NCBI GenBank assembly: GCA_965205915.1
Contig: OZ242191.1
Span: forward strand, 1,070,003 to 1,134,002
Direction of reading: 5' to 3'
DNA length: 64,000 nucleotides
Origin: Dehalococcoidia bacterium
Lineage (GTDB): Bacteria > Chloroflexota > Dehalococcoidia > UBA6926
Shown: positions 27,788 through 58,110 of the stretch, in pieces
Position numbering within the stretch: position 1 is the stretch's first letter
How the letters are laid out: each line of letters starts with the position of its first letter
Translations under genes and position numbers: made by a program
Notes under the pieces: generated by a model
Told to the model about the DNA's origin: nothing
Seen by the model: only the letters and a program-made list of their open reading frames with translations
Database searches by the model: none

Positions 27788-27804
27788 CTACCTGACCTCC
27801 CCCT

Positions 27805-28472: not shown

Positions 28473-28717
28473 TGCGGTTTCGCGCCGAACAACTCTGCGT
28501 CGCGCTCGGCGCGCGCTTCCGCAATCAACGTTGCCGCGTCGACGCCCAGATCCGTCGTTGGGAGTTGAGCCCAACGCTCCTGCCACTCCCGGCGCTTCAG
28601 CTCGCGCTCGACGGCGGTGAGGACGATTGCGCTCATGCTGGAGTTGTTCTCCTGCGCAAGGCGGCGAAGGCGTTTGTGGAGGTCGTCCGGTATGTTTCTT
28701 ACTTGAAGATTAGGCAT
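28469..28717 (-). CDS. vapB: Ribbon-helix-helix (CopG/FitA-like) antitoxin VapB
   Basis: 'MPNLQVRNIPDDLHKRLRRLAQENNSSMSAIV' is an RHH fold signature. Coupled to vapC. Confidence 0.65.
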   Translation of the reverse strand: MPNLQVRNIPDDLHKRLRRLAQENNSSMSAIVLTAVERELKRREWQERWAQLPTTDLGVDAATLIAEARAERDAELFGAKPQ

Positions 28718-35510: not shown

Positions 35511-36566
35511 ATGGCGCTTGCTTACACACTCGGACTTCGCGCGCTCAGCCTTGTGGGCGTGTTGTTTATCGTCCTTTTGCTGGTCGTCGTGACGCTTGGC
35601 GCGACGGGGTTTTCTGACCGCATGTTGACGGCCATCGTGTCCGAGGAGATGCGGGGAACGCGGCAGGGGCTGGCTGAGACAATCAAGGATCCGGAGAGGC
35701 TCGAGGAGACGCTGCGGGAGCGGCGGGTAGAGCTCGAGGAGTTCTATGGGCTGGATCGCTCCTGGTACACGCGGCTCCCGGGGATGGTTGGGCGCGTTCT
35801 GACGCTTGATCTTGGGTCGGCGCGCAACTTACGGAGCTTTGACGGATCGTCTCGTGTGACGGACATCGTGCTGGAGCGGGTGCCGTACTCGATCATGCTG
35901 GTGACGACGTCGTTGATCATTACGGCGATCATCGGCTTATGGCTGGGAGCAAAGCTGGCGACGCGTGTGGGGACGCGGGGGGATCGGCTCGCGTCGTATT
36001 TGGCTGCGGCGTCGAATGCGCTGCCGGCGTGGTGGGCGGGCATCCTGCTCATTCTCGTGCTGTCGTTCCAGCTGCGAATCTTTCCATCCGGCGGGCTATA
36101 CAGTTCGCCGCCGCCGGATGGGGGGCTGCTGCGGTTCATGGACCTTTTGTGGCACGCGGCGCTGCCGATATTGACGCTTGTGCTGGTCTCCGTGGGCGCG
36201 TGGACGTACGTGGTGCGGACGATGTTGCTGAATACGGCGCAGGAGTTCCATGTGACGGCGGCGCGGGCGCGAGGGATACCGGAAGGACAGGTGATGCGGC
36301 GGCACATACTGCGCGTCGCCGCGCCGCCGATCGCGACGAATATCATCCTCGCGCTGACGGGTTCCATCGGCGGGGCGATCCTGACGGAGACGGTGTTCAA
36401 CTGGCCGGGGATGGGGCGGCTGTATTTCGACGCGATCACGACGGCGGATGAGGCCGTCATCGTGGCGCTGACGTTCCTCTTCACGTTGATGTACGTGACG
36501 GCGCGGTTTGTGCTGGAGGTGCTGTACGTGGTGCTTGATCCGCGCGTGAGGTACACGTCGCAATGA
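35511..36566 (+). CDS. oppB: Peptide/nickel ABC transporter permease (OppB/DppB type)
   Basis: 351 aa, 6 TM helices. Conserved 'EAA'-like loop. Confidence 0.8.
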   Translation: MALAYTLGLRALSLVGVLFIVLLLVVVTLGATGFSDRMLTAIVSEEMRGTRQGLAETIKDPERLEETLRERRVELEEFYGLDRSWYTRLPGMVGRVLTLDLGSARNLRSFDGSSRVTDIVLERVPYSIMLVTTSLIITAIIGLWLGAKLATRVGTRGDRLASYLAAASNALPAWWAGILLILVLSFQLRIFPSGGLYSSPPPDGGLLRFMDLLWHAALPILTLVLVSVGAWTYVVRTMLLNTAQEFHVTAARARGIPEGQVMRRHILRVAAPPIATNIILALTGSIGGAILTETVFNWPGMGRLYFDAITTADEAVIVALTFLFTLMYVTARFVLEVLYVVLDPRVRYTSQ

Positions 36567-37996
36567 GGCCGGGGGAGGCGCTCCGCGTCGTACTGAGGTC
36601 AGGCTCCGGTCGCGTGGGCCTGGCGATGCTGGCCATGTTGGTTTTTATTTCCGTGATGGTGCCGTTCTTCTATCCGCTGGATTTCGGTCTGCGGTTCTGG
36701 AATAACCCGATCGCATGGGCGGACAACCCAAAGGCGGTGCCGCCCGCGTGGACGAATCTCGCCGGTAATCAAGCGCCACGCCATCGCGTATTTGACGCCG
36801 AGACGCCCGCGCAAGAGATCGTGACCGGCCCGGCGACCACACGATTGTATTCGTTCACGTTCGACCACGAAGCGGAAGCGCCGCCGACATTCCTTTCCGT
36901 GTCCATCGGGAAAGTGACGTTCTATGAGCGGCCACCGGTGATTTCGATGACGTTATCGCGGCCTGACGGGCGCTCGGCTACGATATTGCAGGAGGTCGTT
37001 CGCGGGGCAAGACCCGACGAGACGCCGCCGGTGACGCGATTCGCGAATGAGCCGCGCCGCATCTATCTGTCCGGAGACACCAATGCCCTCACCACAGCCT
37101 CCGAGTTTTTGCAGCGGGAGTTTGGGTTGCACCTGAGCGCGGCGGAGATGCAGGGGAATCTGGAGGCGGCGCTGTTCGGGACGCCGACGGGGGACGGGGG
37201 CACGAATTTCGCGCCGCTGACGGGGGAGTACACGGCAACGATTCGGGTTATTACCTACGACGCGCGGGACTCGGTGGAGAACGTGCGCTTCGTGGCGGCG
37301 GGCGGTGTGTTCGGGCTGATGGGAACGGATACGCAGGGGCGCAATCTTGCGACGGGGCTGCTGTTCGGCTTTCCGGTCGCGCTGTTGATTGGGGTGCTGA
37401 CGAGCGTAGCGGCCACGATCCTGGGTACGTTCTTTGGGATATTGAGCGGGTTTTCAGGCGGCAAGACGGACACGGTGATACAGCGGCTGGCCGACGTGAT
37501 GACGAATATCCCGCTGCTGCCGATATTGATCTTCCTGATATTCGTGTTGGGGCAGAAGTTGTGGCTGGTGATGACGATCCTCGTGATATTCGGGTGGCCG
37601 GGGCTAACGATTATTTTGCGGTCCATGGTGTTGCAGGTGCGGTCGGGGCAGCTGGTGGAGGCGACGCAGGCGCTGGGGGCGTCACGGTGGCGGATCATGT
37701 TCCGGCACGTATTTTTCCAGATGGCGCCGTTCATCGTGGCACAGATGATTTTCTTCACGCCGGCGGCGATTCTCGCGGAGGCGGGGCTGAGCTTCCTTGG
37801 GCTTGGTGATCCATCGCTGCCGACATGGGGACAGATTCTTGAGCAGGGGTTCCGGACGGGCGCGATCTTCATCGGCTATTGGTGGTGGATACTGCCGCCC
37901 GGCATTCTCATCGTGATTACCGCCATGACTTTTGTGCTCATTGCCCTCGCGATGGAGCCGGTGCTGAATCCGCGCTTGCGGGAGACGGCGACATGA
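36563..37996 (+). CDS. oppC: Peptide ABC transporter permease (OppC/DppC type) with a long N-terminal extracytoplasmic extension
   Basis: 477 aa. ATGA overlap with oppB. The C-terminal half is the permease core. Confidence 0.8.
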   Translation: MRPGEALRVVLRSGSGRVGLAMLAMLVFISVMVPFFYPLDFGLRFWNNPIAWADNPKAVPPAWTNLAGNQAPRHRVFDAETPAQEIVTGPATTRLYSFTFDHEAEAPPTFLSVSIGKVTFYERPPVISMTLSRPDGRSATILQEVVRGARPDETPPVTRFANEPRRIYLSGDTNALTTASEFLQREFGLHLSAAEMQGNLEAALFGTPTGDGGTNFAPLTGEYTATIRVITYDARDSVENVRFVAAGGVFGLMGTDTQGRNLATGLLFGFPVALLIGVLTSVAATILGTFFGILSGFSGGKTDTVIQRLADVMTNIPLLPILIFLIFVLGQKLWLVMTILVIFGWPGLTIILRSMVLQVRSGQLVEATQALGASRWRIMFRHVFFQMAPFIVAQMIFFTPAAILAEAGLSFLGLGDPSLPTWGQILEQGFRTGAIFIGYWWWILPPGILIVITAMTFVLIALAMEPVLNPRLRETAT

Positions 37997-38985
37997 GCAC
38001 TCGGCCAACGAGCAGTGGGCCTGTCCTGACGGTGCGCGATCTGCGGCTATCCTACGCGGCGGATCGTGGCGACGTTCATGCAGTGGACGGTGTGTCGTTC
38101 GACCTGGAGGCCGGTAAGACACTGGCCATCGTCGGCGAGTCGGGTTCCGGCAAGACGAGCCTCGCCCTTGCCCTGCTGCGTCTGCTACCGCGCAACGTGT
38201 CGCGGTTTGAGGGGCAGATCACGCTGAACGGGGCTGACTGCATGGCGCTGAGTGACGGGGAGTTTCGGGAAAGGGTGCGGTGGCGTCAGATTTCGATGGT
38301 GTTCCAGGGGGCAACGGAGTCTCTGAATCCTATCTACAAGGTTGGGCATCAGATTCGAGAGGTGTTCACGTCGCGCGGGGGGCAGTCGCGCCGCGAGGCG
38401 GACGAGCGGACGCGCGAGCTGTTGGAGCTTGTGCGGCTGCCACCGGAGACGTTCAATCGCTATCCGCATGAGCTGAGCGGGGGAATGAAACAGCGGATCG
38501 CGGTGGCGTCGGCGCTGGCGCTCGATCCGGCGCTGATTCTGCTGGATGAGCCGACGTCAGCGCTGGACGTCGGCGTACAGGCGCAGATCATGAACCTGTT
38601 CAAGCGGCTCAAGTCGAATCTGGGCATCTCTTCGATTTTCATCAGCCACGACATCGCGTTGGCGAGCGATCTGGCAGACGACATTGCGGTGATGTACGCG
38701 GGGCGGCTGGTGGAGATTGGGCCGTCGGAGGAGGTGTTGGGTTCGCCATCGCATCCGTACACGCAGAAGCTGTTGGCGGCGATTCCGCGCCTGCGGTCGG
38801 ATGATCCGTTGGAGTTCATCCCGGGCGCGCCGCCGGATTTGTCCGATCCGCCGCCGGGTTGCCGGTTCCATCCGCGTTGCCAATTCGCGATGGATCGGTG
38901 TCGCGTTGAGGACCCGCGCGGTTTTGTGACGGCGGGCGGGCAATCTCTTGCGGCGTGCTGGCTGCTGGATGAGGCCACTCAATGA
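37993..38985 (+). CDS. oppD: Peptide ABC transporter ATP-binding protein (OppD type)
   Basis: Walker A 'GESGSGKTS', signature 'LSGGMKQR'. C-terminal oligopeptide-ABC Cys motif 'GCRFHPRCQFAMDRC'. Confidence 0.85.
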   Translation: MSTRPTSSGPVLTVRDLRLSYAADRGDVHAVDGVSFDLEAGKTLAIVGESGSGKTSLALALLRLLPRNVSRFEGQITLNGADCMALSDGEFRERVRWRQISMVFQGATESLNPIYKVGHQIREVFTSRGGQSRREADERTRELLELVRLPPETFNRYPHELSGGMKQRIAVASALALDPALILLDEPTSALDVGVQAQIMNLFKRLKSNLGISSIFISHDIALASDLADDIAVMYAGRLVEIGPSEEVLGSPSHPYTQKLLAAIPRLRSDDPLEFIPGAPPDLSDPPPGCRFHPRCQFAMDRCRVEDPRGFVTAGGQSLAACWLLDEATQ

Positions 38986-40031
38986 CGTTCACGACAACGC
39001 GTTCTACGAATGCCGCATCCGGCGCGGTCCCAATGCTGGAGTTGCGCGACGTTGCGATGCACTTCAAGTCACGCGGGCGCGGGTTCCGCACGACGACGGT
39101 TCGGGCGCTGGACGGGGTGACGCTCTCACTGGATCGGGAAGAGACGATCGCGGTCGTGGGTGAGTCGGGGTCGGGCAAGACGACGCTGGGGCGTGTGTCG
39201 TTGCGGCTGTTGGAGCCGACGGCGGGCAGAGTGATCTTCGATGGTGAGGACATCACTGAGATACAGGAGAAGCGGCTCAAGGGCTTTCGACGGCGGGCGC
39301 AGGGGATATTCCAGGACCCGTTCACGAGTCTCGATCCGTACATGACGATTCGGCAGATCGTGGAGGAGCCGCTGGTTATCCATGGGGCGGGGTCGGGATC
39401 GGAGCGGCTGGAACGCGTGGTGTGGGCGCTGGAAGAGGTGCGGATGCGGCCGGCAAGCGACTTCCTGAACCAATTTCCACATCTGCTGTCGGGCGGACAG
39501 CGGCAGCGGGTGGGCATCGCGCGGGCGTTGGTGCTGACGCCGGACTATATGTTGGCGGATGAGCCGGTCTCGATGATTGACGCTTCGAGCCGGGCCGAGA
39601 TTCTGTTGCTGTTGCGGGAGCTACAAGAGCGGCATCACATCGGCTATCTGTACATCACGCACGACATCGCGACGGCGCGGCACTTTGCACCGACGGCTGC
39701 GGTCATGTATTTGGGGCGCATAGTCGAACACGGGCCGACGGTGGATTTGATCAACAATCCGCTGCATCCGTATACGCAGGGGCTATTGAACGCGGTGCCG
39801 GAGCCTGATCCGGCGAATCGGCTCGCGGAGCGAATCGTGCTGCCCGGAGAGGCTCCAAGTCCGGCGAACGTGCCGAGCGGGTGCCGCTTCCATCCTCGCT
39901 GCCCGGCGTTCATGGCAGGGCTGTGCGACGTTGTGCCGCCACCGCTGGTGGAGATAGAGCCGGGGCGTACGGTGGAGTGCCATTTGTACGGGGAAGAGGG
40001 GAAGGAGCGGGCGGAACAGCGAGCAATATGA
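38982..40031 (+). CDS. oppF: Peptide ABC transporter ATP-binding protein (OppF type)
   Basis: Walker A 'GESGSGKTT', 'LSGGQRQR', 'GCRFHPRCPAFMAGLC'. Confidence 0.85.
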   Translation: MTFTTTRSTNAASGAVPMLELRDVAMHFKSRGRGFRTTTVRALDGVTLSLDREETIAVVGESGSGKTTLGRVSLRLLEPTAGRVIFDGEDITEIQEKRLKGFRRRAQGIFQDPFTSLDPYMTIRQIVEEPLVIHGAGSGSERLERVVWALEEVRMRPASDFLNQFPHLLSGGQRQRVGIARALVLTPDYMLADEPVSMIDASSRAEILLLLRELQERHHIGYLYITHDIATARHFAPTAAVMYLGRIVEHGPTVDLINNPLHPYTQGLLNAVPEPDPANRLAERIVLPGEAPSPANVPSGCRFHPRCPAFMAGLCDVVPPPLVEIEPGRTVECHLYGEEGKERAEQRAI

Positions 40032-40196: not shown

Positions 40197-40862
40197 TTAG
40201 TCACCCGTAATGTCGAGGGCGCGGACGAACCTGAATAAACCATGCTTGGTTCCACTTGGTTCTTCGGTTCCATGGGCGTTCGCGATGTGATGGACCACTT
40301 GCAAGGCTTCCACGTAAAGAGAGGAGGCGAGGGTGACGTTGACCGGGGTGGGTATTCTCAGGTTTCGATCGAGGTATTCCTCAAGTTCTGCTTTCTGAGC
40401 GCGGGACATTTCGATGCGGTCGAGCACCAGATCGTACCTCTCGGAGATGAGGGGATTTGCAGCAAAGTGCCACTCAAGTAGACGGCGGAGAGCAAAGTTC
40501 CAGAAGCGACGCGCGTCCTGGCCACGCGGGCTGTCCGGGCGAAGATAAGGGCCACTGAACGTTTCTTTGTCCAAGTAGACTGCTGAAGCTGAAATGGCTT
40601 CACCGCCCTCTGCTAACGTCTGAATGGGATCCATGAGACGGTCAAACTCCGGTTTCCCAACCGGGATTTTCAGCTCCCGCGATAGACGGCGCAAGTAACG
40701 GAATGCTGCCATATGCCGGACAATGCCTTGATAGGAGTCATCCGTCACGTGCAGAGCGGCCATAGCGAAGGAGGGGCTGCTAAGGAGCGCGCCCGTCTGT
40801 GGATGCACTGCGTAGCCAGGATCGCCAGATTCGTCAACAAAGATGTAATCGTATTTGGCCAT
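40197..40862 (-). CDS. DUF3800-family protein (defense-island associated)
   Basis: The N-terminal 'YDYIFVDESGDPG' is the DUF3800 signature. Lower-GC stretch adjacent to the tRNA cluster. Confidence 0.65.
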   Translation of the reverse strand: MAKYDYIFVDESGDPGYAVHPQTGALLSSPSFAMAALHVTDDSYQGIVRHMAAFRYLRRLSRELKIPVGKPEFDRLMDPIQTLAEGGEAISASAVYLDKETFSGPYLRPDSPRGQDARRFWNFALRRLLEWHFAANPLISERYDLVLDRIEMSRAQKAELEEYLDRNLRIPTPVNVTLASSLYVEALQVVHHIANAHGTEEPSGTKHGLFRFVRALDITGD

Positions 40863-42027: not shown

Positions 42028-44337
42028 TTACTCGGAATCAAGTTCGACGTTTTCCAGCCTGAGGAAGCCCTGCGAATCGAGGGTGAGGTTCTTTACGCGG
42101 TCTGATACCAGGATGTAGTCGCTGCCGAAGTAGAGTGGGAACGCGACGGCCTCCTGCACCATTCTGCGTTCGATTTCCCGGTACTGCTCAAGGCGGTCAT
42201 CGCCCGCGGTTCGGGCCTGTTCGAGTAGGTCATCGATGGCGTCTGAGCCAGCCTTGCCGTCGTTGTTCTGCGACTCGGTATGGAAGAGGACATCGAGGAA
42301 GTTGTGGGGGTCCGGGTAGTCGGCGAGCCAGCCATAGCTATAGATGTTGAAGCCGATCTCAAGGATCGATGGCAATTGGTAGAAGTATGCCTGGCCGGCG
42401 GCGCGATACACGATGCGCACTTCAAGGTTTTCTTGCCACTGATTCATGATCGCACGCGTGATTGGGCCGGCTTCTCTGCGGCCCACAATGAAGATGGCGG
42501 GTTGCTCGTCTCCGAGTTGACCAAAATCAGTGCCGTCAAGGAGTTCTTTGGCAGCGACAGGGTTGTACGCGATTTCGGCGATGTCTTCGTCGTAGCCGGG
42601 CAGGCCGGGCGGCATGAATCCGTGGGCGAGGCGTATGTCTGAGCCTGCATGTTCCTCAAAGATGGCTTCGCGATCCACGGCCCAGAGGAATGCTCGACGC
42701 ACATCGGGATCATTGAAGGGCTCAACAACTGTGTTGAATGCCAGGTACGAGATGCTGAGGGCGTCCGTGCTGGTGATCTTGTCAACAAGAGGGCTCGCCT
42801 CTTCTACAAGTTCGTCATAGTCGCCCGCGTATATGAATGTCGTCGCGTCGGCAAACCCCTCTTCCACCATTGCAGCCGGGATGCCGGCGTGGAAACGGAA
42901 AACGAGATTGCCAACCGTGGTGGGCGGGCCGACATAGCCCTCAAACGCGGTGAGATGAGCAACGCGGGACCGCTCATAGTGGGCGAGCCGATACGGGCCC
43001 GTGCCGATTGAGGTGTAATACCAGGGATCCGAAGGCTCTACATCCTCGGCGTCTTCCTCTTCAGTTTGTTCAGCCGGAGTGTCTTCCTCTTCCTCACCGT
43101 CCATCTCTTCTTCCTCCTCGATGAGACGCGGACTCGGAGGCTCGGGGACGTTGGATTCCAGGACGAGGTAGGCGGAGGAGTGCGTGAGCTTGGAGATGAA
43201 GTAGCTCTTGGGCTCATCAATGGTGACGACAAGGGTGGAATCGTCCGTGGCATCAAGGCCGGTGACGGAATCCGCCTCTCCGGCGGCATACGCCCTTGCG
43301 CCAACGATGTCATCCAGATAGGTTGAACCGCTGCTGCCGACGGCGGTCAGGTTGCGATTGAGCGCGCGCTCCCATGAGAAGACGATGTCCTGGGCGGTGA
43401 CGGCTGTGCCGTCGTGGAATTGAGCGCCGTCCTTGATTGTGAAGGTGTAGACCGTGCCATCTTCCGATACCTCCCATGTGGCGAGGTCAGGCTCCGGTAT
43501 CAAGTCCGCATTCAAGCGAACGAGTCCGCTGAATATCTGGCGTATGTACTGGGAGGAGCTGGCATCTGTCGACACACCGGGGTCGAGGGTTATCGGGCCA
43601 CCGTCCAGATAAAGGACGAGGGTTTCATCACGGGGCGCTCCGAAGGGCTGGGGGGCCACAGGCCGGATGCTTGTGGACACGGTATCGAGAACGTCAAAGT
43701 TGCGTTCGTAGACGGTGCGGGGGGCCTCCGTCTGGACACCCATCGCCGTGGTTCCGCGCGTCACGAAGGTGACTGCGCCACGCTGCTCGTTCGATCCCGT
43801 GCCGTAGCCGTAGAAAACCTGATGGGCCTCGGCGCCGTCATCCAGGGTGATGTCAGCCTCGGTGATGGTTCGGAATCCACTCAGGCCGGCCAAGGGGGTG
43901 ATTTGCTCCTGTGCAATCTCAGCAGCATGGATTGGCTCGGCGCTGAAGAGGACAATCGTTTGGGCGTGGATATCTTCGTTTCCGGTTTCAAAGACATTCA
44001 CAATGCTGAGGAGCCCACTTGAGGGACGCTCACCGATCCATGCTTCCGGCACCTGCAGGGCGTAGCCATAGAGGCCATCCGTGTAGGTCACCAAATCTGA
44101 GGAGATGACTGCTTCCGTTTCGGCGCCGTCATCCGTTTGAGTCGGTGTGGCGATGGCAGGAACGGTTGCGGGAGTGGGTGTTGACACGGGAGTGGCGGTA
44201 GCGGCCGCCGCCGCCGTCGCGGTTGGCGTGGCCGTTGCGGGCACGACAGTCTCCGGGAGCGAAGTCGCTTCATCGTCCCCATTACAGGCGGCCAGCAGAA
44301 GCAGCAGACTGAAGGCAAGCGTAAAGGCCACAAACAT
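42028..44337 (-). CDS. ABC transporter substrate-binding lipoprotein, family 5 (peptide/nickel type), with a poly-acidic insertion
   Basis: Likely start MFVAFTLAFSLLLLLAACNGDD (lipobox). Family-5 blocks, plus the unusual insert 'EEEEEMDGEEEEDTPAEQTEEEDAEDVEPSDP'. Confidence 0.75.
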   Translation of the reverse strand: MFVAFTLAFSLLLLLAACNGDDEATSLPETVVPATATPTATAAAAATATPVSTPTPATVPAIATPTQTDDGAETEAVISSDLVTYTDGLYGYALQVPEAWIGERPSSGLLSIVNVFETGNEDIHAQTIVLFSAEPIHAAEIAQEQITPLAGLSGFRTITEADITLDDGAEAHQVFYGYGTGSNEQRGAVTFVTRGTTAMGVQTEAPRTVYERNFDVLDTVSTSIRPVAPQPFGAPRDETLVLYLDGGPITLDPGVSTDASSSQYIRQIFSGLVRLNADLIPEPDLATWEVSEDGTVYTFTIKDGAQFHDGTAVTAQDIVFSWERALNRNLTAVGSSGSTYLDDIVGARAYAAGEADSVTGLDATDDSTLVVTIDEPKSYFISKLTHSSAYLVLESNVPEPPSPRLIEEEEEMDGEEEEDTPAEQTEEEDAEDVEPSDPWYYTSIGTGPYRLAHYERSRVAHLTAFEGYVGPPTTVGNLVFRFHAGIPAAMVEEGFADATTFIYAGDYDELVEEASPLVDKITSTDALSISYLAFNTVVEPFNDPDVRRAFLWAVDREAIFEEHAGSDIRLAHGFMPPGLPGYDEDIAEIAYNPVAAKELLDGTDFGQLGDEQPAIFIVGRREAGPITRAIMNQWQENLEVRIVYRAAGQAYFYQLPSILEIGFNIYSYGWLADYPDPHNFLDVLFHTESQNNDGKAGSDAIDDLLEQARTAGDDRLEQYREIERRMVQEAVAFPLYFGSDYILVSDRVKNLTLDSQGFLRLENVELDSE

Positions 44338-44546
44338 GGCGCGCGGCGTAGTGCGACCGTGAACGAGATTTGGCACAGACAGGTTCCTCCTGTTGAATAT
44401 AAATCGGAGAGCGAGTGAGTGATGCAAGATCAACGATGCACCTATTATGATACGAGTCGTGTTCCGCGACCAACTGAGCATAACGGGACCGACCTTTCAC
44501 AGATATTTGACGCGCGCCGAGCCAGTCCCGCGGAGGTAATGATCTA

Positions 44547-46931
44547 ATGTGGCGGAATCCAACCCGACTACTTGTACTAACGGCCATGATGGCCGTCATG
44601 TTAGTTGTGTCACCGGCAGGGTTTGCGGCGGCACAGGACGGAGAGGGCCGTGTGCTGGGGTCTCCCGGCATCCTGACGCCGGATTATCCGTACTTGGCGC
44701 CGGACGTTTTGGCGTTCCGGGATCAGACGGCGAAGCTGCTGTCCGGCCGCGTGTCGCTGATGGCGCAGGGGCTTGACGCGCAGACGGGCGGGATCGGCGG
44801 TAGTGAGGCGCGCAGTGGACCAGTAGCATCAGGACAGGCCTCGCCTGCCAGACAGGGTGGCGTGCTCGTCCCCTACCGTGATCCTTCGGCGCGATTCAGT
44901 CGGAACATCTTGATCCCGACGGATTTCAGCACTGCGCCGTTGCAGACAGAGCCGCATCTGGCAGTTGATCCGTTCGATTCCGACCACATCATCGCGGGCA
45001 TGATCGACTATAACTTCCCGGGCGTCACGACGTATGTGACGTATGACGGGGGAGTGACGTGGGAAGGGCCGGCAGTGATCAAGCGTCCCCGCGAGGAGCT
45101 GGGTAGCGGCGGCGACCCGGTGCTGGCATTCGATCGCGAGGGTTCGGCATTCGTAACGTTCATCTCGCTGGACATTGAGGAGTTCACGGTTGGGAACCTG
45201 TTGGGTACCGCAGTTGTGTCCAGCATGGCGCTGAGCACATCGAGCGATGGCGGATTCACATGGACGGAGGGCACACCGGCGGTGCGGAGCCAGGTGTCGT
45301 CCGATTTCACAATCGACCAGTTGGGGCGGACGCGCGGCACGGTGGCCATCGGTTTCCTGGACAAGCCGTGGCTGGCCGTCGGGCCGAATTCGGATGACCC
45401 CGATTCAGACATCATTTACATCACGTATACGCATTTCAACACGACGTATCGGATCTCGTACACGGATGAACTCGCGTTCCTGAGCAATCCCGTTCTTGAG
45501 ACGACCATTGAGATGGTGAAATCGGAGGACGGGGGCATAAGTTGGTCAGACCCCATGGTGGTCAGTCCAATCATTCGGCAGGTCTTCGAGTTCGGGGGGT
45601 CCGATCAGGAGAACCTGAATGACGCTCCAAGCCAGCTACAGTCGCCGGATACGATTCCGGGCGGGCAGGTCATTGAGAGCCTGAAGCGGATTTTGCAGGG
45701 GTCCTATGTGGCGACGCATACGGACGGGAGCGTATACGTTTCGTGGATGGACTCGACGGACGACGGGCCGTTTGAGGGTATTGCGCAGATGTTCGTGGCG
45801 CGATCGGACGACGGCGGTGACACATTCACTGACGGACAACGGGCGACGAATTACCTTGAGCTTGGGTTCTCGCCACGCAGCAGCTTCTATCGCTTCTGGG
45901 GCTCGACGTTTTCTCGCATCGCCATTGGGCCGAATGGCGAGTTGTATATGGTGTTCTGCGCCGCGCCGGCGGGTGATCCGTCGGACGACTCGGACGTGAT
46001 GATGGTGCGTTCAATGGACGAAGGGCGGACGTGGAGCAGGCCGCTCCAGATCAATGATGATCGAACATCGGGTATCCAGTTCTTCCCGGCGGTCGATGTT
46101 TCTCCAAATGGGAAGGTTCACGTGATGTGGGGAGACACGCGCGACGATCCGGGCATCGATCTTCGTTATCACATCTATTACGCGGTCTCCGAGGATCAGG
46201 GAGAGTCGTTCGGCATCAATTCCCGTGTGACGGACTCCGCATCGAACCCGAACTACGGCTTCCCCGGCGGACAGTTCATCGGCGACTACTTCGGGTTGGC
46301 GGCGACGGATGAGGACGTCTACATGGTGTGGGCGGATACACGTCTTGGCGAGTTCCAGGGGACGAATCAGAAGATCGGCTTTGCGCGGATGCGGCAGATG
46401 CCAAGTCCATCGATCTTCCTTTCGCCGTCACGCGGGGCATCGGCCACGACGGTGACAATTCAGGGTTTCAATTTCCAGGCCGATCAGGACATATTCATTC
46501 TCGTTAGCGGAGTCCTCGTATCCACCATCGAGTCGAATGATGAGGGGCGATTCACAACGCAGCTCTTCTTCCCAACTGCGGGAGAGGGGGCGCAGTCCGT
46601 TGGCGTGTTTGACGCTTCCGGCAACGCGGCGACGGCATCGTTCTATAACGAATTCGGCTTTGACAACCTCCAGCAAACCGCAGCAGACATCGAGGACATC
46701 AAGAACGCGCTCAGCTCTGACACGTTGGCAAGCATCCAGGAGGCGCTGGATCGAATCGAGTCGGGCGAGAGTGGCGGTGACGACGAGTCCGGCGGGTGCA
46801 GCACGGGCAACGCGACGGCGGACATGGCCCTTGTCGGTTTGCTTGCGCTGGGCATCATCGGGGCGGCGCAACTGAATTCGCGCAGACGACGGCGCGAGAA
46901 CGACAGCGACGGAGGCGAGGCCGATGGGTAG
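44547..46931 (+). CDS. Secreted BNR/Asp-box repeat (sialidase-like beta-propeller) protein with a Cys-containing C-terminal sorting-signal-like tail
   Basis: Signal peptide. Five Asp-boxes: TYDGGVTW, SSDGGFTW, SEDGGISW, SDDGGDTF and MDEGRTW. C-terminus 'SGGCSTGNATADMALVGLLALGIIGAAQLNSRRRRR'. Confidence 0.65.
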   Translation: MWRNPTRLLVLTAMMAVMLVVSPAGFAAAQDGEGRVLGSPGILTPDYPYLAPDVLAFRDQTAKLLSGRVSLMAQGLDAQTGGIGGSEARSGPVASGQASPARQGGVLVPYRDPSARFSRNILIPTDFSTAPLQTEPHLAVDPFDSDHIIAGMIDYNFPGVTTYVTYDGGVTWEGPAVIKRPREELGSGGDPVLAFDREGSAFVTFISLDIEEFTVGNLLGTAVVSSMALSTSSDGGFTWTEGTPAVRSQVSSDFTIDQLGRTRGTVAIGFLDKPWLAVGPNSDDPDSDIIYITYTHFNTTYRISYTDELAFLSNPVLETTIEMVKSEDGGISWSDPMVVSPIIRQVFEFGGSDQENLNDAPSQLQSPDTIPGGQVIESLKRILQGSYVATHTDGSVYVSWMDSTDDGPFEGIAQMFVARSDDGGDTFTDGQRATNYLELGFSPRSSFYRFWGSTFSRIAIGPNGELYMVFCAAPAGDPSDDSDVMMVRSMDEGRTWSRPLQINDDRTSGIQFFPAVDVSPNGKVHVMWGDTRDDPGIDLRYHIYYAVSEDQGESFGINSRVTDSASNPNYGFPGGQFIGDYFGLAATDEDVYMVWADTRLGEFQGTNQKIGFARMRQMPSPSIFLSPSRGASATTVTIQGFNFQADQDIFILVSGVLVSTIESNDEGRFTTQLFFPTAGEGAQSVGVFDASGNAATASFYNEFGFDNLQQTAADIEDIKNALSSDTLASIQEALDRIESGESGGDDESGGCSTGNATADMALVGLLALGIIGAAQLNSRRRRRENDSDGGEADG

Positions 46932-49527
46932 GCTTTCGGTCATGAACCGTTTCCGCGTCGGCCGCTCTTTACGGTTGGCAACAGTGTTGGCTGTGGTGTT
47001 GACGCTGGGCGTGATTGCGGGGGGCGGCTCTGTCCTCGCGCAGAGTCCAGATGAGTACGACGCGCCGCATGAGCAGCCCGGGCCGGCTGTCGATACGATC
47101 CATTACCGCTCGTTCAACGTTGACCTCGCGCCGCAGGAGTTGCAACGAGATGAGATGGATATGTACATCTTCAATCTCAAGACGGATGCTGCGCAGGCGC
47201 TGCGGGGTGATGACTCAATCGAGTTGTATGAGGCTCCGGCCTCGACGATTTCGCTGATACTGAATCCGGCGCCCGCGCCCGAAGGTCAGCTGAATCCGTT
47301 CTCGCTGACGGAGGTGCGGCGCGCCATCCATCACCTGGTCAATCGCGAGTTCATTACGCAGGAGATCTACAAGGGCCTCGCGCGTCCGATGTATACACAC
47401 GTCAACCCATTCGACTTCGATTACACGGTCGTTGCGGAGATGTTGGCGCGGCAGGACCTCGCATATGACCCGGAGCGGGCGCGGGCGACGATAGCGTTGG
47501 CGATGACGGCGGCCGGGGCAAGCATGGTGGACGGGGTCTGGAACTATGACGGGGAGCCTATTCGACTGAAGTTCATCATTCGCGTGGAGGATGAACGTCG
47601 CGACGTGGGCGACCTGATTCGCGCCGAGCTGGAGAGCGCAGGATTTCTTATCGCGCCGATCTATCACCAGTTCGCGCCGGCAATTCTGACGGTCTACAGC
47701 ACAGACCCACAGCTATTTGAGTGGCACATGTACACGGAGGGATGGGGACGCGGGGCGGCGGAACGCTATGATTCCGCGACGATCAATCAGATGGCCGCGC
47801 CGTGGCTCGGAAATATGCCGGGCTGGCAGGAATCGGGACTCTGGCAGTACGAGAACGCGCGGCTGGATGACCTGGGGCAGCGGATTTTCCGCGGCGATTT
47901 CCAGGATAAGGCGGAACGGAACGCGCTGTACCAGGAGGCGACGCGGGTATCGGTGGAGGAATCCGTCCGCGTCTGGCTGGCTACGATCATTACGACGTTC
48001 CCGGCAAGCTCAGGCATCGTGGGTGTGACGGAGGACGTGGCGGCGGGGCCGAAGTTGCAATGGACGTTCCGCGAGGCGTACGTGCCGGGAGAGGACACGC
48101 TGACCGTCGGGCACCTGTGGGTGTGGACGGAGCGCAGCACATGGAATCCGGTGTCCGGCTTCGGGGATATTTATAGCAGCGACGTGTGGCGCAACCTCGC
48201 CGATCCGGCTATGACACGCCATCCGTTTACGGGAATCCCCATCGCAATGCGCGCCACCTATGACGTTGAGACGTCGGGGCCGAACGGCAAGCTGGCTGTG
48301 CCTGCGGACACGCAGATTTGGGACGCGAATGCGGGAGAGTGGACAGGCGTGGGCTCCGGCATAGAGGCAACGTCAAAGGTCACATTCGATTACAGCAAGT
48401 TCTTCCAGGCGCCGTGGCATCACGGGCAGCAGATCACGATGGCGGATCTGGTCTATGACATCTATCAGACGTTTGACATGGTGTACGGGCCGGAGAAGTC
48501 GCAGGTGGAGTTCGCGCTATCGACGGTCTCCAGACCGCTGCTCGACACGGTTCGTGGATTCCGGGTGCTGGATGAGAACCGCATCGAGGTCTATGTGGAC
48601 TACTGGCACTTTGTGGACGATTACATCGCCGAGTACGCCGTGCCGGGCAGCATGACAATGCCGTGGGAGGTTCTGGCGGCGATGGATGACATCGTATTCG
48701 ACCAGCGCCGCGCCGCCTACAGCGATACGTCCGCGCAACGATTCGGCGTGCCATGGCTCAGCCTGGTGCAGGATCGCGACGCGCGCACGGTGGACAGGAC
48801 GCTTGCGCAGTTCGAGCGGGAGGGATTCGTTCCGACGGCGGCGCTGACCATTGGCGGGGAAACCCTGGTGACGGAGGCGGAGGCACTGGGGCGATACCAG
48901 GCCGCGCAGGCATGGTTTGATGAGCGCAATCTGATGGTGATCAGCAACGGGCCGTTCTACCTGGAGCGGTTTGATCCGCCGGCGCAGTTCGCCGAACTCA
49001 AGGCGTTCCGCGATGAGAACTATCCGTTCAAGCCCGGCGATTGGTATTTCGGCGCGGCTGATCCGATCAGCGTCGAGCCGGAAAGCGTCAGCGGCATCGC
49101 CATCGGGCAGGCGCTGGATGTGAGCGTGAACGTTGAGGGGCCGGGCGAGTTGGGCGTGCGCTACGTGTGGTCGGACCCGGCGACGGGGAACATCGTCAAG
49201 TCGGGCGACGCGACGGCGGCGGACGGCGGGTTTGTCGTGCCGTTCTCGGCAGGTGAGACGGCGGCGCTTATACCCGGCCTGTATCGACTATCCATCACCG
49301 CATATAGCGATGAGCTTTCGACGGTGTCAGAACGCGTGCTAACGGTGGAGGCATCGGCCACCGGCACGACGACGGACACGGGCGATGGCACAACCACGAC
49401 GCCTGTGGACGGCGGTGGCGATAAGTCCGGCGGCTGCGGCTTCGGCGCGCCATCAGCAGACATGCTAATCATCGTGGGGCTGCTGCTGGGGATGGTGGGG
49501 GTTGCGCGGCGGCGGAGTGGATCGTGA
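46924..49527 (+). CDS. Family-5 solute-binding-protein-like surface protein with the same C-terminal Cys/TM/Arg tail
   Basis: Signal peptide. SBP_bac_5-like blocks. C-terminus 'SGGCGFGAPSADMLIIVGLLLGMVGVARRRSGS'. Confidence 0.55.
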   Translation: MGRLSVMNRFRVGRSLRLATVLAVVLTLGVIAGGGSVLAQSPDEYDAPHEQPGPAVDTIHYRSFNVDLAPQELQRDEMDMYIFNLKTDAAQALRGDDSIELYEAPASTISLILNPAPAPEGQLNPFSLTEVRRAIHHLVNREFITQEIYKGLARPMYTHVNPFDFDYTVVAEMLARQDLAYDPERARATIALAMTAAGASMVDGVWNYDGEPIRLKFIIRVEDERRDVGDLIRAELESAGFLIAPIYHQFAPAILTVYSTDPQLFEWHMYTEGWGRGAAERYDSATINQMAAPWLGNMPGWQESGLWQYENARLDDLGQRIFRGDFQDKAERNALYQEATRVSVEESVRVWLATIITTFPASSGIVGVTEDVAAGPKLQWTFREAYVPGEDTLTVGHLWVWTERSTWNPVSGFGDIYSSDVWRNLADPAMTRHPFTGIPIAMRATYDVETSGPNGKLAVPADTQIWDANAGEWTGVGSGIEATSKVTFDYSKFFQAPWHHGQQITMADLVYDIYQTFDMVYGPEKSQVEFALSTVSRPLLDTVRGFRVLDENRIEVYVDYWHFVDDYIAEYAVPGSMTMPWEVLAAMDDIVFDQRRAAYSDTSAQRFGVPWLSLVQDRDARTVDRTLAQFEREGFVPTAALTIGGETLVTEAEALGRYQAAQAWFDERNLMVISNGPFYLERFDPPAQFAELKAFRDENYPFKPGDWYFGAADPISVEPESVSGIAIGQALDVSVNVEGPGELGVRYVWSDPATGNIVKSGDATAADGGFVVPFSAGETAALIPGLYRLSITAYSDELSTVSERVLTVEASATGTTTDTGDGTTTTPVDGGGDKSGGCGFGAPSADMLIIVGLLLGMVGVARRRSGS

Positions 49528-49552: not shown

Positions 49553-51172
49553 GTGACCACAGCAGAAGAAACCCAACTGTGGGATGAATACGTCGCGGCC
49601 GCGAAGACGTACTTGGCGACGGGTACGCTTGAAGAATACGAACTGAACTATAAGCGCGAGATAGGGGGACTGCTAGGACAAGCACGGAACGCCATCTTGA
49701 AGGGTTACGCCAATTGGATTGATCCTCTGTTTCTTCCATTGAGGCCTAGACAGGGTCATCCTGTGAACTTTAGGGCAATAAATGGATTTCGAAGGTGGTA
49801 TGGTCAACAGCCAGTTGAAGCCCATGAAGCGCTGAGTGTTTTGTGGACCGATAACCAGATTCCCGTCGCTGAACGAATTCGCGGCTTTAGGGAGTACGTA
49901 CCTGATTATCTACTAACCCTAGGCGTGGGCTCATTGACAACCTTCATCGCTTTCCTTCTCATGGGCATAGATGTGGAAGATTATCCGCCGTTCAACACTC
50001 GGCCGTTCAATAGAGCTTACGATCGAACTGGATATGCGAGGGCCGCTAATGACGCGGACGAAGCAGGGCGATACGAGCACGCGCTAGGCTTCCTCGATCG
50101 CTTTATTGCAGAAGCTAGCAAGCGAAGTGTTGATCTCAACAGTCGCCTCAAAGCGCAATCAGTAGTGTGGCAAGTGGCAAATCCTCAAGACTGGGGCGGC
50201 CGCGTACTAGAAGAAGAAAATAACATTTACGCTCCCCGCCTGGAGCAGGTTGAGGCCGAATCTTCTCTCCCGGACCTCGCCGCCAGTCTCTACCTCCCGA
50301 CTGAGTTCCTGCAGAACATCGAGACGCTGCTGGATGAGAAGAAGCAGGTGATTTTCCAGGGGCCGCCGGGGACAGGCAAGACGTATGTGGCGCAGGCGTT
50401 AGCGGAGCATCTGGCGGGTTCGCCGGAGTGTGTGACGTTGGTGCAGTTCCACCCGTCTTATTCCTATGAGGACTTTGTGCAGGGTTATCGGCCCACTTTG
50501 AGGGACGGGCAGCCCGGCTTTGAGCTACGCGATGGTCCGCTCCTGAGGGCAGCAGAGCAGGCACGGCAAGAACCGAACGCCAACCATTACCTGATCATTG
50601 ATGAGATCAACCGCGGTAACATCGCCAACGTGTTTGGCGAACTGTATTTTCTGCTGGAATACCGCGACAAGCAAATCAACCTGCAATATGATGACAAGCC
50701 GTTCTCGCTCCCCAAGAACCTGTTCATCATTGGCACCATGAACACTGCTGACCGGTCAATCGCACTCGTCGATCTTGCTTTGCGGCGACGATTCTACTTT
50801 GTCGAATTTCATCCCGACATCGAGCCGGTGCGAAGCGTCCTCAGAAAGTACTTGGAAGCGCAAGGTCTCGAGGAAATGCTTTGGGTTGCCGATGTGGTTG
50901 AAGCTGCCAATGAAAAGCTCAGGGAAGACCGTCATGCCGCTATCGGGCCAAGCTATTTCATGCGGGATGATCTGGGTGAGGAGACGGTCGAGCGAATTTG
51001 GAAGCACAGTGTTCTTCCGTACATCGAGGAACGGCGTTTCGGCGGCAATGCAGTGTCGGATGAATTCAGTCTGGATAGTCTGCGCCGTGAGGTAAATCGG
51101 AGCCTGGCTCAGTCGGATGACGCTGACGTGAGCGTGGATCGTGGCGAGGATGCGGCTGCCTCCGAGGATTAA
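49553..51172 (+). CDS. mcrB: McrB-family AAA+ GTPase (restriction subunit) with a non-canonical ~300 aa N-terminal domain
   Basis: Walker A 'FQGPPGTGKTY', 'LIIDEINRGNIANVFGELYFLLEYR', 'FIIGTMNTADRSIALVDLALRRRFYFVEF'. Low-GC region. Confidence 0.85.
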   Translation: MTTAEETQLWDEYVAAAKTYLATGTLEEYELNYKREIGGLLGQARNAILKGYANWIDPLFLPLRPRQGHPVNFRAINGFRRWYGQQPVEAHEALSVLWTDNQIPVAERIRGFREYVPDYLLTLGVGSLTTFIAFLLMGIDVEDYPPFNTRPFNRAYDRTGYARAANDADEAGRYEHALGFLDRFIAEASKRSVDLNSRLKAQSVVWQVANPQDWGGRVLEEENNIYAPRLEQVEAESSLPDLAASLYLPTEFLQNIETLLDEKKQVIFQGPPGTGKTYVAQALAEHLAGSPECVTLVQFHPSYSYEDFVQGYRPTLRDGQPGFELRDGPLLRAAEQARQEPNANHYLIIDEINRGNIANVFGELYFLLEYRDKQINLQYDDKPFSLPKNLFIIGTMNTADRSIALVDLALRRRFYFVEFHPDIEPVRSVLRKYLEAQGLEEMLWVADVVEAANEKLREDRHAAIGPSYFMRDDLGEETVERIWKHSVLPYIEERRFGGNAVSDEFSLDSLRREVNRSLAQSDDADVSVDRGEDAAASED

Positions 51173-51185
51173 GCCGACGCGATAA

Positions 51186-52394
51186 ATGAAGCGCCAGATC
51201 GACCTTGCGGAATATCAAGAACGCGGGCCGTATCAACTCTCCGTAGACGAACGGGACGCGCTATCCGCCAGTCTGTCTCTAGATTCGATCAAGCCGGTGG
51301 AGGGCGCTGAGGATAGGTATTTTCTAAAGGCCGGGTCCAGAGTGGGCGCGGTTGAAATTGGCGATCTGTCAGTCCTGATTCAACCAAAGATCGACATCCC
51401 ACAATTGCTGTCGCTGGCTTGCTACGCGATAGGGGCGTACAAGCCACAAGTTGACCGACTCTTTGATTTTGGCGAACGTGTGACCCTGCCGGACGCGCTG
51501 GCGTTGGCGTTAGGAAATGCGGCAAGAAGAGCCTTCACTCGCGGGCTGCTGCACGGGTACCGCGCAAGAGAAGAAGCTCTGCAGACTGTGCGCGGTCGCA
51601 TTCGTTTTGCCGATCAGATACGCAGCAGGTACGGAATCGCGCCACCGGTCGAGGTTCGGTATAACGAATTCACAGACGACATCCTGGAGAATAGGCTCGT
51701 GAAGGCGGCGGCGTATAGAATTGGCCGACTCCCTCTCCGCTCCGCTCAGGCTCGCCGCGGCCTCGGATGGATTGCCGGGATGTTGGACAACGTTTCATAC
51801 AAGGAGTTCTCGCCTCGTAGCGTGCCACCCGTCACCATGAATCGTCTCAATGAGCACTACAGCGATGTGATTGCCCTTTCGCAGCTCATCCTAAGACACG
51901 GCGCATTCGAGTCTGAGCGTGGCGGGATTCGCGCCTCCGGTTTCCTGATGGACATGAATGTCGTGTTCCAGGAGTTCGTGACGACGGCCCTTCGGGAAGA
52001 ACTGAAAGACACTACTGGCACGCTCCGCTCAGACAAGGAGCTTTCAGGCCAACGCAGCCTCTTTCTGGATGAGGGGCGGGGCGTCAGGCTTGAGCCTGAT
52101 CTGACGTGGTGGCAGGACGGCATTTGCACATTCGTCGGCGATGCTAAATATAAGAACCTGGCGGACCGCTCCGCCCCGAATGCCGATCTTTACCAACTTC
52201 TGGCCTATGCGACGGCCTTGGATCTGCCGGGTGGAACGCTTATCTACGCGCAAGACAAGGCTGAGCCACGCACGTACGCCGTCAACTATGCTGGCAAGCG
52301 GCTGTCAGTGGTTGCCCTGGACATTTCACTACCACTTGAGGAGGTGCTTGAGCAGGTGCGGGATATTGCACGTCGATTGAAGAGTTCAGGTTAG
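51186..52394 (+). CDS. mcrC: McrC-family PD-(D/E)xK endonuclease subunit
   Basis: 402 aa immediately downstream of mcrB. 'EPDLTWWQDG...FVGDAKYK' D...(D/E)xK motif near the C-terminus. Confidence 0.75.
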   Translation: MKRQIDLAEYQERGPYQLSVDERDALSASLSLDSIKPVEGAEDRYFLKAGSRVGAVEIGDLSVLIQPKIDIPQLLSLACYAIGAYKPQVDRLFDFGERVTLPDALALALGNAARRAFTRGLLHGYRAREEALQTVRGRIRFADQIRSRYGIAPPVEVRYNEFTDDILENRLVKAAAYRIGRLPLRSAQARRGLGWIAGMLDNVSYKEFSPRSVPPVTMNRLNEHYSDVIALSQLILRHGAFESERGGIRASGFLMDMNVVFQEFVTTALREELKDTTGTLRSDKELSGQRSLFLDEGRGVRLEPDLTWWQDGICTFVGDAKYKNLADRSAPNADLYQLLAYATALDLPGGTLIYAQDKAEPRTYAVNYAGKRLSVVALDISLPLEEVLEQVRDIARRLKSSG

Positions 52395-57420: not shown

Positions 57421-58110
57421 TCAGGCATTCCGCAGGTTAATCACGTGCCCTTCACCTACGGCCCTCTTAAGTTGGGCACCAAGGTTCCCATCAAGGTCGC
57501 CAAGGTAGACGTCAACATCCTGTTCCTTGAGATTTTGAATGACTTCTGAATAGTCCCGATCCTTCGCAATGAAGACGAGTATTGTTTCTTGCGGCTCTTG
57601 GCCACAGTCACTTCTGACCTGGGAAATGAGTTCCTCGTCCATATTGATGTCGTCTTCCCATACACGCCACCCGGTTTCCGTAAGATTTTCGGTTGCCGCA
57701 GCCTGGTTCACTCCGGCAAAAGCCTTGAACCTCTGATATGAGGTACCGATAAAACGTTTTTGTAAGGCAGTCCTGATTCCGTCACTTACACCCTGAACTC
57801 TATTGGCTGCTCTTCCTACGTTTTGGAAGTCCCAGAAAACTAATAGTCGTGTCCGTCCAGTCGTCTTCTTGGCCATTGGCCGCCTCCTTCTAAAGAACTC
57901 CGGTGTGAATTTGCGTTCCGTCGCAATGCTGTAGAACTTCGCCAAGTTCTTGGCATCGGGAGGAGTTGCGCCCGTCTCCCATCGAGACAAGGTATTCTGT
58001 GGGACACCGAGCAATTCGGCCATTGCGGTCTGTTTTAGCTCCAGTTTTGTTCTAAGCTCCACAAGCGCCTGGTGCCGGAACTCATACCTGTCCCGCTCCT
58101 CTGTTGTCAC
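57421..58110 (-). CDS. HTH-XRE (Cro/C1) fused to a NYN (PIN-like, LabA) nuclease domain
   Basis: N-terminal 'QTAMAELLGVPQNTLSRWETG' HTH. C-terminal 'LLVFWDFQNV...LVFIAKDRDYSEVIQNLKEQDVDVYLGD' NYN acidic residues. Low GC. Confidence 0.6.
   Translation of the reverse strand: MTTEERDRYEFRHQALVELRTKLELKQTAMAELLGVPQNTLSRWETGATPPDAKNLAKFYSIATERKFTPEFFRRRRPMAKKTTGRTRLLVFWDFQNVGRAANRVQGVSDGIRTALQKRFIGTSYQRFKAFAGVNQAAATENLTETGWRVWEDDINMDEELISQVRSDCGQEPQETILVFIAKDRDYSEVIQNLKEQDVDVYLGDLDGNLGAQLKRAVGEGHVINLRNA

Follow-up and report, generated by a model that had tools for sequence, protein, structure and literature searches.

How are two adjacent exported proteins that end in the same kind of C-terminal tail attached to the cell that makes them? 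The question is raised by a locus on contig OZ242191.1 of a Dehalococcoidia bacterium (assembly GCA_965205915.1), of which 64,000 nucleotides (positions 1,070,003 to 1,134,002, hereafter the window) were analyzed. Two neighboring genes in this window, here called A and B, encode proteins whose tail is composed of a cysteine-containing signature, a hydrophobic helix, and a cluster of arginines. A preliminary description of this DNA had noted that the tail resembles a sorting signal. In the analysis presented here, its assignment as a Cys-centered anchoring module seems secure. The explanation that we favor, at roughly even confidence, is that A and B are exported by the Sec pathway and serve outside the cytoplasm in an Opp-type peptide-uptake cluster that occurs across Chloroflexota, with the tail as a processed Cys-type sorting or anchoring signal.

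Two adjacent exported proteins share a tripartite tail

Gene A encodes a β-propeller protein of the BNR/sialidase type. The Pfam models BNR_2 (30.5 bits) and BNR (21.6 bits) both score just under threshold, and residues 628 to 682 match the PGS immunoglobulin (Ig)-like domain of NCBIfam. The protein has 591 homologues, and those that are named are all Chloroflexota proteins annotated as "sialidase/BNR." Gene B encodes an SBP_bac_5-like protein (Pfam, 69.7 bits), for which the closest solved structure is that of an oligopeptide ATP-binding cassette (ABC) binding protein, 7fi3_A (E value of 5e-34), and its named homologues are likewise all from Chloroflexota. The ATG of B lies within the end of A, with an overlap of 8 nt, and the two genes are a translationally coupled pair. 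The signal peptide of A, as read from the sequence, has a basic n-region, a hydrophobic core, and an AxA site. A lipobox ([LVI][ASTVI][GAS]C) at the end of the N-terminal signal peptide is absent from both proteins.

Protein A ends in ...ESGGCSTGNATADMALVGLLALGIIGAAQLNSRRRRRENDSDGGEADG and protein B in ...KSGGCGFGAPSADMLIIVGLLLGMVGVARRRSGS. Both tails follow the layout SGGC-x2-G-x4-AD-M, which is continued by a Gly-rich helix and then by an Arg cluster. A degenerate DNA pattern for this signature (S-G-G-C-x6-A-D-M-x8-G) has two matches in the window, at 46788 and 49426, versus none in 100 dinucleotide shuffles. A six-frame search of the 64 kb with a regular expression for a Cys, a spacer, a hydrophobic stretch, and a basic cluster near a stop codon recovered only the genes for A and B, together with one match in a noncoding frame. 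The two open reading frames (ORFs) and their shared, Cys-bearing tripartite tail are therefore as the preliminary description had claimed, which the alignment of 27 tails presented below corroborates. The tail Cys of B (C838) is the sole Cys in the 867 residues of this protein, against a Cys background of 0.79% in 14 other proteins of the window, and the tail Cys of A is one of only two in that protein.

Conservation and variant forms of the tail

Comparison of orthologues shows the tail to be an island of conservation flanked by variable linkers. In A, column identity is 91% for the tail, 64% for the preceding linker, and approximately 35% for the acidic extension that follows the Arg cluster; in B, it is 71% for the tail versus approximately 51% for the Thr-rich linker. 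Alignment of 27 distinct tails of the form found in the window (type 1) shows that G-G-C, the Gly at position +3 from the Cys, the Asp at position +8, and one Gly within the helix are invariant or nearly so. All 27 tails have a single Cys, and the residue after the invariant Asp is Met, Leu, Ile, Val, or Gly, never Pro.

A search with the strict pattern over one genome per prokaryotic species returned 32 stretches, 17 of which are genuine; all 17 lie in metagenome-assembled genomes (MAGs) named "Dehalococcoidia bacterium" or "Chloroflexota bacterium," several of which have chromosomes of 1.6 to 2.07 Mb. A orthologues in 16 species genomes of Dehalococcoidia retain the tail, as do their B neighbors. 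Other Chloroflexota carry different forms of the tail on the same two protein families. Besides type 1 (SGGC-x7-D-helix-RRR), these are type 2 (GGGCGR..E-helix-RRR), type 3 (GG[FLI]SC[NS]...GD[LM]-helix-RRR), and a form with no transmembrane (TM) segment, ...GGFSCSGPPL followed by 0 to 5 residues, which is present in 51 of 121 B orthologues. Further orthologues have a plain helix and Arg cluster without a Cys, or no tail.

The proteins with the TM-less Cys box have neither a lipobox nor a helix, and no NCBIfam model matches the box. Examples are encoded at L159:12453-15002 and L002:12489-14993 in related loci and are found among the B orthologues P0139 to P0236, which are exported SBP-like proteins of approximately 840 amino acids. 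Read-through or a frameshift that would conceal a helix behind these short tails was considered and rejected, as no such helix occurs downstream. The box looks like an extracytoplasmic and longer analogue of the CAAX-type box.

Within a genome, the tail types of A and B agree coarsely. Type 1 is paired with type 1 in the window and in the loci L001 and L162, and tails of the GFSC type are paired with each other in L159 and L002; in L162, the signatures of A and B are identical at 14 of 17 positions. The helices of the Cys tails also differ from the plain anchors of orthologues in their lower hydrophobicity (2.03 versus 2.59), higher Gly content, and shorter stubs, a difference that is only suggestive because the sequences compared are phylogenetically nonindependent.

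The lone cysteine and the exchange of anchors among orthologues

The 121 B orthologues comprise 32 with a Cys-containing tripartite tail, the 51 with the TM-less Cys tail, 23 with a plain TM helix and Arg cluster, and 15 without a tail. Exactly one Cys is present in all 32 tripartite proteins and in 49 of the 51 short-tailed ones. Of the 15 tail-less proteins, 9 instead bear a lipobox at the N terminus, with a Thr/Pro linker behind it, and 1 is truncated; a lipobox occurs in none of the 106 B orthologues that bear any C-terminal tail. The N-terminal lipid anchor, the C-terminal helix, and the C-terminal Cys motifs are thus interchangeable tethers of B. Since the 51 short-tailed proteins have no other anchor, the Cys box is their sole candidate tether, which implies a function that is independent of the helix. 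In the family of A, a plain TM helix and Arg cluster without a tail Cys is found in 91 of 121 orthologues, 81 of which hold no Cys at all.

Orthologues in which the tail has given way to a plain helix, to a Cys box without a TM segment, or to a lipobox are natural "experiments" on its function, and taken together they argue that the Cys is the tether. The alternation of anchors in the B orthologues marks the Cys motif as a predicted membrane tether. The most novel leads are this Cys box without a TM segment and the pattern of anchor exchange among orthologues.

Other carriers of the tail and candidate proteases

A hidden Markov model (HMM) of the tail, which scores the seed proteins at 45 to 67 bits, was run against 1.84 billion representative proteins and gave eight matches at an E value of ≤0.001. 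Six of these are fragments of B. The remaining two, P0246 (a DUF11 repeat protein) and P0248, clearly carry a type 1 tail but are unrelated to A and B, so that the Cys signature, TM helix, and Arg cluster are common to four nonhomologous proteins (A, B, P0246, and P0248). The architecture thus fits the tripartite logic of Cys-containing sorting signals that had been proposed for it, as a conserved island on unrelated exported proteins. P0246 (L155:9173-9763) is a DUF11/CLIPPER-repeat protein with a type 1 Cys tail and no signal peptide, encoded between transposase genes in a region dense in insertion sequences, and may be what is left of a larger surface protein. The loci around P0246 and P0248 contain no protease and no further tails.

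The HMM also detected B tails of the ADL and ADI type adjoining A. HMM and regular-expression searches of approximately 460 kb of fetched loci gave no further carriers, and a looser variant of the pattern (GGC-x2-G-x3-AD-x-G[LI]) in metagenome DNA yielded, among the matches listed, one genuine stretch in 120, which resembles a B-family tail. The strict pattern is estimated to catch approximately one-quarter of the type 1 tails outside A; with this sensitivity and so few carriers, a large hidden set of clients is unlikely. The search for further members of the tail family thus largely failed. With the strict pattern in 16 species, about two clients per genome were detected rather than a broad, proteome-wide sorting pathway, and the data point only weakly to a general sorting signal. 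The wider proposal of a distinct sorting or anchoring pathway in this lineage survives in part: the lone Cys of B and the swapping of anchors fit a surface-anchoring signal, but one that serves approximately two clients.

No candidate for a CPBP-type protease was seen in the approximately 460 kb of fetched loci. A heuristic scan of Chloroflexota loci for the CPBP motif (EExxxR plus at least four TM segments) gave one match, which was rejected as an ABC permease. Two multi-TM ORFs of the window were also considered as proteases and rejected, one being TM7S3/TM198-like and the other unassigned.

Processed signal or permanent anchor

In the favored explanation, the BNR propeller A and the binding-protein-like B belong to a peptide-uptake cluster together with a lipoprotein binding protein and an importer of two permeases and two ATPases. 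In both A and B, the helix and Arg cluster would act as a stop-transfer segment that retains the precursor in the membrane after export. The attachment point would be the lone Cys, which lies 8 residues ahead of the invariant Asp at the start of the helix and would most likely be lipid modified. An intramembrane protease with its gene at another site in the genome, a CPBP/Rce1-type "Mrt" enzyme, would then probably cut off the helix immediately behind this Cys. As a result, A and B would stay attached through a lipid-bearing C-terminal Cys at the end of a flexible linker. We infer the modification of the Cys, the cleavage, and the identity of the enzyme only by analogy, because MrtX-dependent and Cys-dependent cleavage of MYXO-CTERM has been shown experimentally (Guo, Haft and Wall 2025, PMC11980579) and because a CPBP protease is associated with each of the four known signals of the Cys-containing tripartite kind. 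In these known signals, the modification of the invariant Cys is itself still unknown.

Several observations weigh against this explanation. The preliminary description had suggested a search for a co-occurring exosortase, rhombosortase, or CPBP-type protease, but genes for CPBP (PF02517), rhomboid, exosortase, and sortase proteins are absent from the 64-kb window, multi-TM ORFs included, and from the ±10 kb around the A-B pair in the six sampled genomes (loci L001, L002, and L159 to L162). Across the sampled loci, the pair is flanked by ABC-transporter genes, McrBC, or RelA. An adjacent protease is the norm in low-copy systems, and for JDVT-CTERM the gene for the CPBP protease MrtJ adjoins the client in 16 of 17 cases (Haft 2023, bioRxiv 10.1101/2023.06.07.544157); none adjoins the A-B pair. 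In the genomes of 16 related species, the strict pattern finds only A, plus B in one genome. Apart from L162, the type 1 tails of A and B show no fine-scale covariation, and the identity within genomes is not above that across genomes. Furthermore, the 11 residues that follow the Arg cluster of A are long for a sorting signal, and one A orthologue that is 81% identical (P0006) has NGL in place of GGC with the rest of the tail kept (...NGLSTGNATADMAIVGLLALGVIGAVQWSARRRR), which reflects either a natural loss of the Cys or an error in the sequence. Finally, most A orthologues are simple bitopic proteins, which makes an unprocessed anchor the parsimonious default.

Such a permanent, unprocessed C-terminal TM anchor is the main alternative, possible though on balance unlikely. 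The Cys would then serve in a B-B or A-B disulfide, in S-acylation, or in contact with the ABC permeases, and the helix would be conserved for packing against other helices rather than for recognition by a protease. The plain TM and Arg anchors of 91 A and 23 B orthologues point to a bitopic ancestral state and agree with this alternative, as do the lack of a protease near the pair and the limitation to two clients per genome. The identical C-x7-D-M spacing in A and B of the window would set the two Cys residues in register for a disulfide, and the helices contain small-residue motifs such as GLLALGIIG. However, in 12 of 25 A-B pairs on the same contig, B has the tail Cys and A has no Cys whatever, so that an A-B interchain disulfide was rejected as the general role of the Cys. 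An unprocessed TM anchor also sits poorly with the 51 B orthologues in which the Cys tail has no TM segment and no other anchor is present, with the signature on unrelated proteins, and with helices that are less hydrophobic and stubs that are shorter than those of plain anchors. Should the tail nevertheless be an unprocessed anchor, the finding would amount to a modest annotation note.

A broader proposal, which we consider rather unlikely, is that of a Chloroflexota C-terminal "reverse lipoprotein" system. Here a Gly-rich linker would be followed by a lone Cys that bears a covalent modification on the outer side of the membrane, and tail types 1 to 3 and the TM-less box would be lineage-specific forms of this arrangement. 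The system would stand in for N-terminal lipoprotein or TM anchors on surface proteins associated with transporters, with a set of enzymes not simply orthologous to the known Mrt proteases.

It is distinctly improbable that the sorting signal is handled by an enzyme outside the CPBP family, such as a rhombosortase-, exosortase/archaeosortase-, or sortase-like protein or a so far unrecognized transpeptidase coupling the Cys region to a lipid or an envelope polymer. In favor of this reading, the tails have an 8-residue spacer between signature and helix; according to Haft, a spacer is present in LPXTG-type signals, which are cleaved outside the membrane, while the signature lies directly against the helix in signals that are cleaved by deeply embedded enzymes. 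Nevertheless, the window tails match only models of the Cys type (MYXO-CTERM and JDVT-CTERM). The models for LPXTG, PEP-CTERM, GlyGly-CTERM, and PGF-CTERM give no match for the two window tails at an E value of ≤10, and the known Cys-containing tripartite signals are all CPBP linked.

That the tails are bona fide MYXO-CTERM domains served by a myxosortase orthologue is very improbable, although A marginally passes the cutoff of the MYXO-CTERM model (TIGR03901.2). The full-length protein scores 21.4 bits over residues 747 to 783 (cutoff of 20), the tail alone scores 26.3 to 27.9 bits, and 11 of the 27 type 1 tails reach about the cutoff. The preliminary statement that the tails do not match LPXTG, PEP, or GlyGly holds for both proteins; extended to known models in general, it is only half right, as A is a marginal exception and B is not. 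B has no match to MYXO-CTERM at an E value of ≤10. The curated MYXO-CTERM family is confined to Myxococcota and Bradymonadales, frequently has GCGC, and numbers 3 to 73 clients per proteome, and matches to its short HMM need review by a curator, according to Haft; the tails described here have a single Cys, approximately two clients per genome, and a Dehalococcoidia host. A cognate myxosortase (MrtX, MrtC, or MrtP, with the core domain NF040914) is likewise absent from the window and from the sampled flanks of ±10 kb. Last, chance likeness of low-complexity Gly/Leu/Arg-rich sequence, for which it can be said that short biased segments are often alike and that generic sorting-signal HMMs are promiscuous, is effectively refuted by the two pattern matches against none in the shuffles, the conservation in 16 species genomes, the invariant positions over 27 tails, and the lone Cys of B.

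Genomic setting of the A-B pair

The features of the locus are collected in Table 1. The divergent binding protein upstream of A is encoded by an ORF of which the longest form probably begins too early. Its true start, judged from the sequence, is probably M48, which gives the lipoprotein signal MFVAFTLAFSLLLLLAAC, and its sole Cys is the lipobox Cys (LLLAAC65). The same lipobox-bearing gene is present upstream of A in L002, L159, L160, and L162; importer genes also flank the A-B pair in L001, L002, L159, and L161; and the adjacency of A and B is kept in all six of these loci (L001, L002, and L159 to L162). Across Chloroflexota, the pair is maintained beside the divergent SBP_bac_5 lipoprotein gene, usually together with two permeases and two ATPases. 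The carriers of the tails are thus two accessory proteins of a peptide-uptake cluster, both of them extracytoplasmic.

Table 1. Coordinates of the features of the A-B locus (positions in the 64,000-nucleotide window)
Feature	Position	Strand	Basis
Opp/Dpp-type ABC importer, whole gene set	35511..40031	+	Pfam BPD_transp_1, ABC_tran, oligo_HPY
Two permeases	35511-36566, 36563-37996	+	Pfam
Two ATPases	37879-38985, 38982-40031	+	Pfam
Divergent SBP_bac_5 binding protein, N-terminal lipoprotein	42028..44481	-	Pfam SBP_bac_5, 208.9 bits
Gene A, exported BNR/sialidase-like beta-propeller with Ig-like domain, linker, and C-terminal Cys tail, 794 aa	44547..46931	+	ORF
Predicted Sec signal peptide of A, MWRNPTRLLVLTAMMAVMLVVSPAGFAAA / Q	44547..44633	+	Inferred by reading the sequence, without a predictor
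Tail A, signature motif S748-G-G-C751-S-T-G-N-A-T-A-D759-M	46788..46826	+	DNA pattern match at 46788
Tail A, hydrophobic Gly-rich helix MALVGLLALGIIGAAQL	46824..46874	+	Hydropathy scan, TM start at residue 756
Tail A, Arg cluster RRRRR	46881..46895	+	Sequence
Tail A, acidic 11-residue end after the Arg cluster, variable between species	46896-46928	+	Sequence, alignment
Gene B, exported SBP_bac_5-like protein with Thr-rich linker and C-terminal Cys tail, 867 aa	46924..49527	+	ORF
Predicted Sec signal peptide of B, ...VIAGGGSVLA / QS, without lipobox	46924..47040	+	Inferred by reading the sequence
Thr/Gly/Asp-rich flexible linker upstream of tail B, ASATGTTTDTGDGTTTTPVDGGGDK	49351..49425	+	Sequence
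Tail B, signature motif S835-G-G-C838-G-F-G-A-P-S-A-D846-M	49426..49464	+	DNA pattern match at 49426
Tail B, hydrophobic helix MLIIVGLLLGMVGVA and Arg cluster RRR, then three residues and stop codon	49462..49515	+	Hydropathy, TM start at residue 837

Directly 3' of B, genes for McrB (AAA_5) and McrC (49553-52394) lie ahead of a gene for RelA/SpoT (52637-55024). In L160 and L162, RelA follows B at a distance of 0.2 to 2.3 kb with no McrBC between them, and McrBC therefore looks like an inserted restriction module. Elsewhere in the window, scattered defense or toxin-antitoxin-like genes (26660-28586, 40197-40862, and 57421-58110) encode Schlafen AlbA_2, PIN, DUF3800, and helix-turn-helix (HTH) plus NYN proteins. 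The window also encodes five paralogous leucine-rich-repeat proteins, all on the minus strand (18636-20123, 20215-21651, 21968-23755, 32533-33753, and 33817-35136), which have in common a two-Cys C-terminal cap (...TGC[AI]P...PYCE). Four paralogues with Pfam-confirmed leucine-rich repeats have N-terminal lipoboxes (ALIAC, PAAC, and LLTGC) and Thr/Pro linkers. Eukaryote-like repeat proteins are typical of host-associated symbionts, for example, those of sponges.

The 6-TM, TM7S3/TM198-like ORF (12144-12845, minus strand) overlaps an overlong ORF of the Ham1 family (11494-12759, minus strand) and covers the 5' part of the latter. As the Ham1 domain begins only at residue 212, the two ORFs probably represent two separate genes.

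Comparison with known signal systems

Cys-containing tripartite signals have so far been described only in Myxococcota/Bradymonadales, some Pseudomonadota, Synergistetes, and Thermococcales, and a search of the accessible literature found no description of a Cys-type C-terminal signal in Chloroflexota. Like MYXO-CTERM, the Chloroflexota tails are C-terminal, have the Cys within a signature, and continue with an uncharged, Pro-free helix and an Arg cluster. They differ from it in having one Cys rather than GCGC, an 8-residue spacer that ends in an invariant Asp, two clients rather than dozens, and a Dehalococcoidia host, and in that the HMM leaves B unmatched. MYXO-CTERM proteins reach the surface of a two-membrane cell via the type II secretion system (PMC11980579). 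For the tails described here, there are only two clients, both well-defined transporter-associated proteins, and a type II secretion step would not obviously be needed.

JDVT-CTERM has a single Cys, a near-invariant Asp-Pro 9 residues later, and few clients (Haft 2023, bioRxiv 10.1101/2023.06.07.544157). The tails described here resemble it in their one invariant Cys, in the Asp at the start of the helix (at +8 instead of +9), in the conserved residues within the helix, and in the very small number of clients per genome. With the JDVT-CTERM model (NF033191, cutoff of 27), A scores 15.5 bits and B scores 14.7 bits, which is the top NCBIfam match for B and the second-best for A; the scores overall range from 14.7 to 17.4 bits. 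Three of the 27 type 1 tails match at an E value of ≤5e-4, the best at 2.9e-5, which is still under the cutoff. Besides these subcutoff scores, the differences are the lack of a Pro after the Asp, a host in Chloroflexota rather than Pseudomonadota, and the lack of an adjoining CPBP gene.

The CGP-CTERM/MrtA system of Thermococcales (TIGR04288) presents a further likeness, as its Cys-type tail also follows a Thr/Ser-rich linker on large extracytoplasmic proteins. In contrast, the CGP-CTERM signature abuts the helix in a tail of only 20 amino acids, and the window tails have no CGP motif. They do not match the CGP-CTERM model, for which type 2 tails give weak, subthreshold matches; for tail types 2 and 3 and the short form, NCBIfam gives nothing beyond weak matches below threshold.

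Two systems outside the tripartite class are also instructive. N-terminal lipoproteins are its functional equivalent in the B orthologues in which a lipobox and a Thr/Pro linker take the place of the tail, but the tail is a mirrored arrangement, with the Cys ahead of a C-terminal helix, and the S-G-G that precedes the Cys is off the lipobox consensus. The TM-less B tails resemble the CAAX box processed by Rce1 in that they form a short box at the C terminus in which a lone Cys is invariant, and the CPBP family links CAAX processing to long Cys tails. Unlike the CAAX box, however, the box of the B orthologues is longer and extracytoplasmic, and it is absent from the window itself.

Taxonomy, the single Cys, and the approximately two clients per genome argue against true membership in MYXO-CTERM; set against JDVT-CTERM, the tail lacks the Pro, the HMM score, and the adjacent protease. 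Judged by these sequence features, the tail is probably best placed outside both named families, as a separate, Chloroflexota-specific member of the class of Cys-containing tripartite signals. A Dehalococcoidia version, if true, would extend this class to a new phylum and bears on how nutrient-capturing proteins are attached to the surface of abundant, uncultured Chloroflexota.

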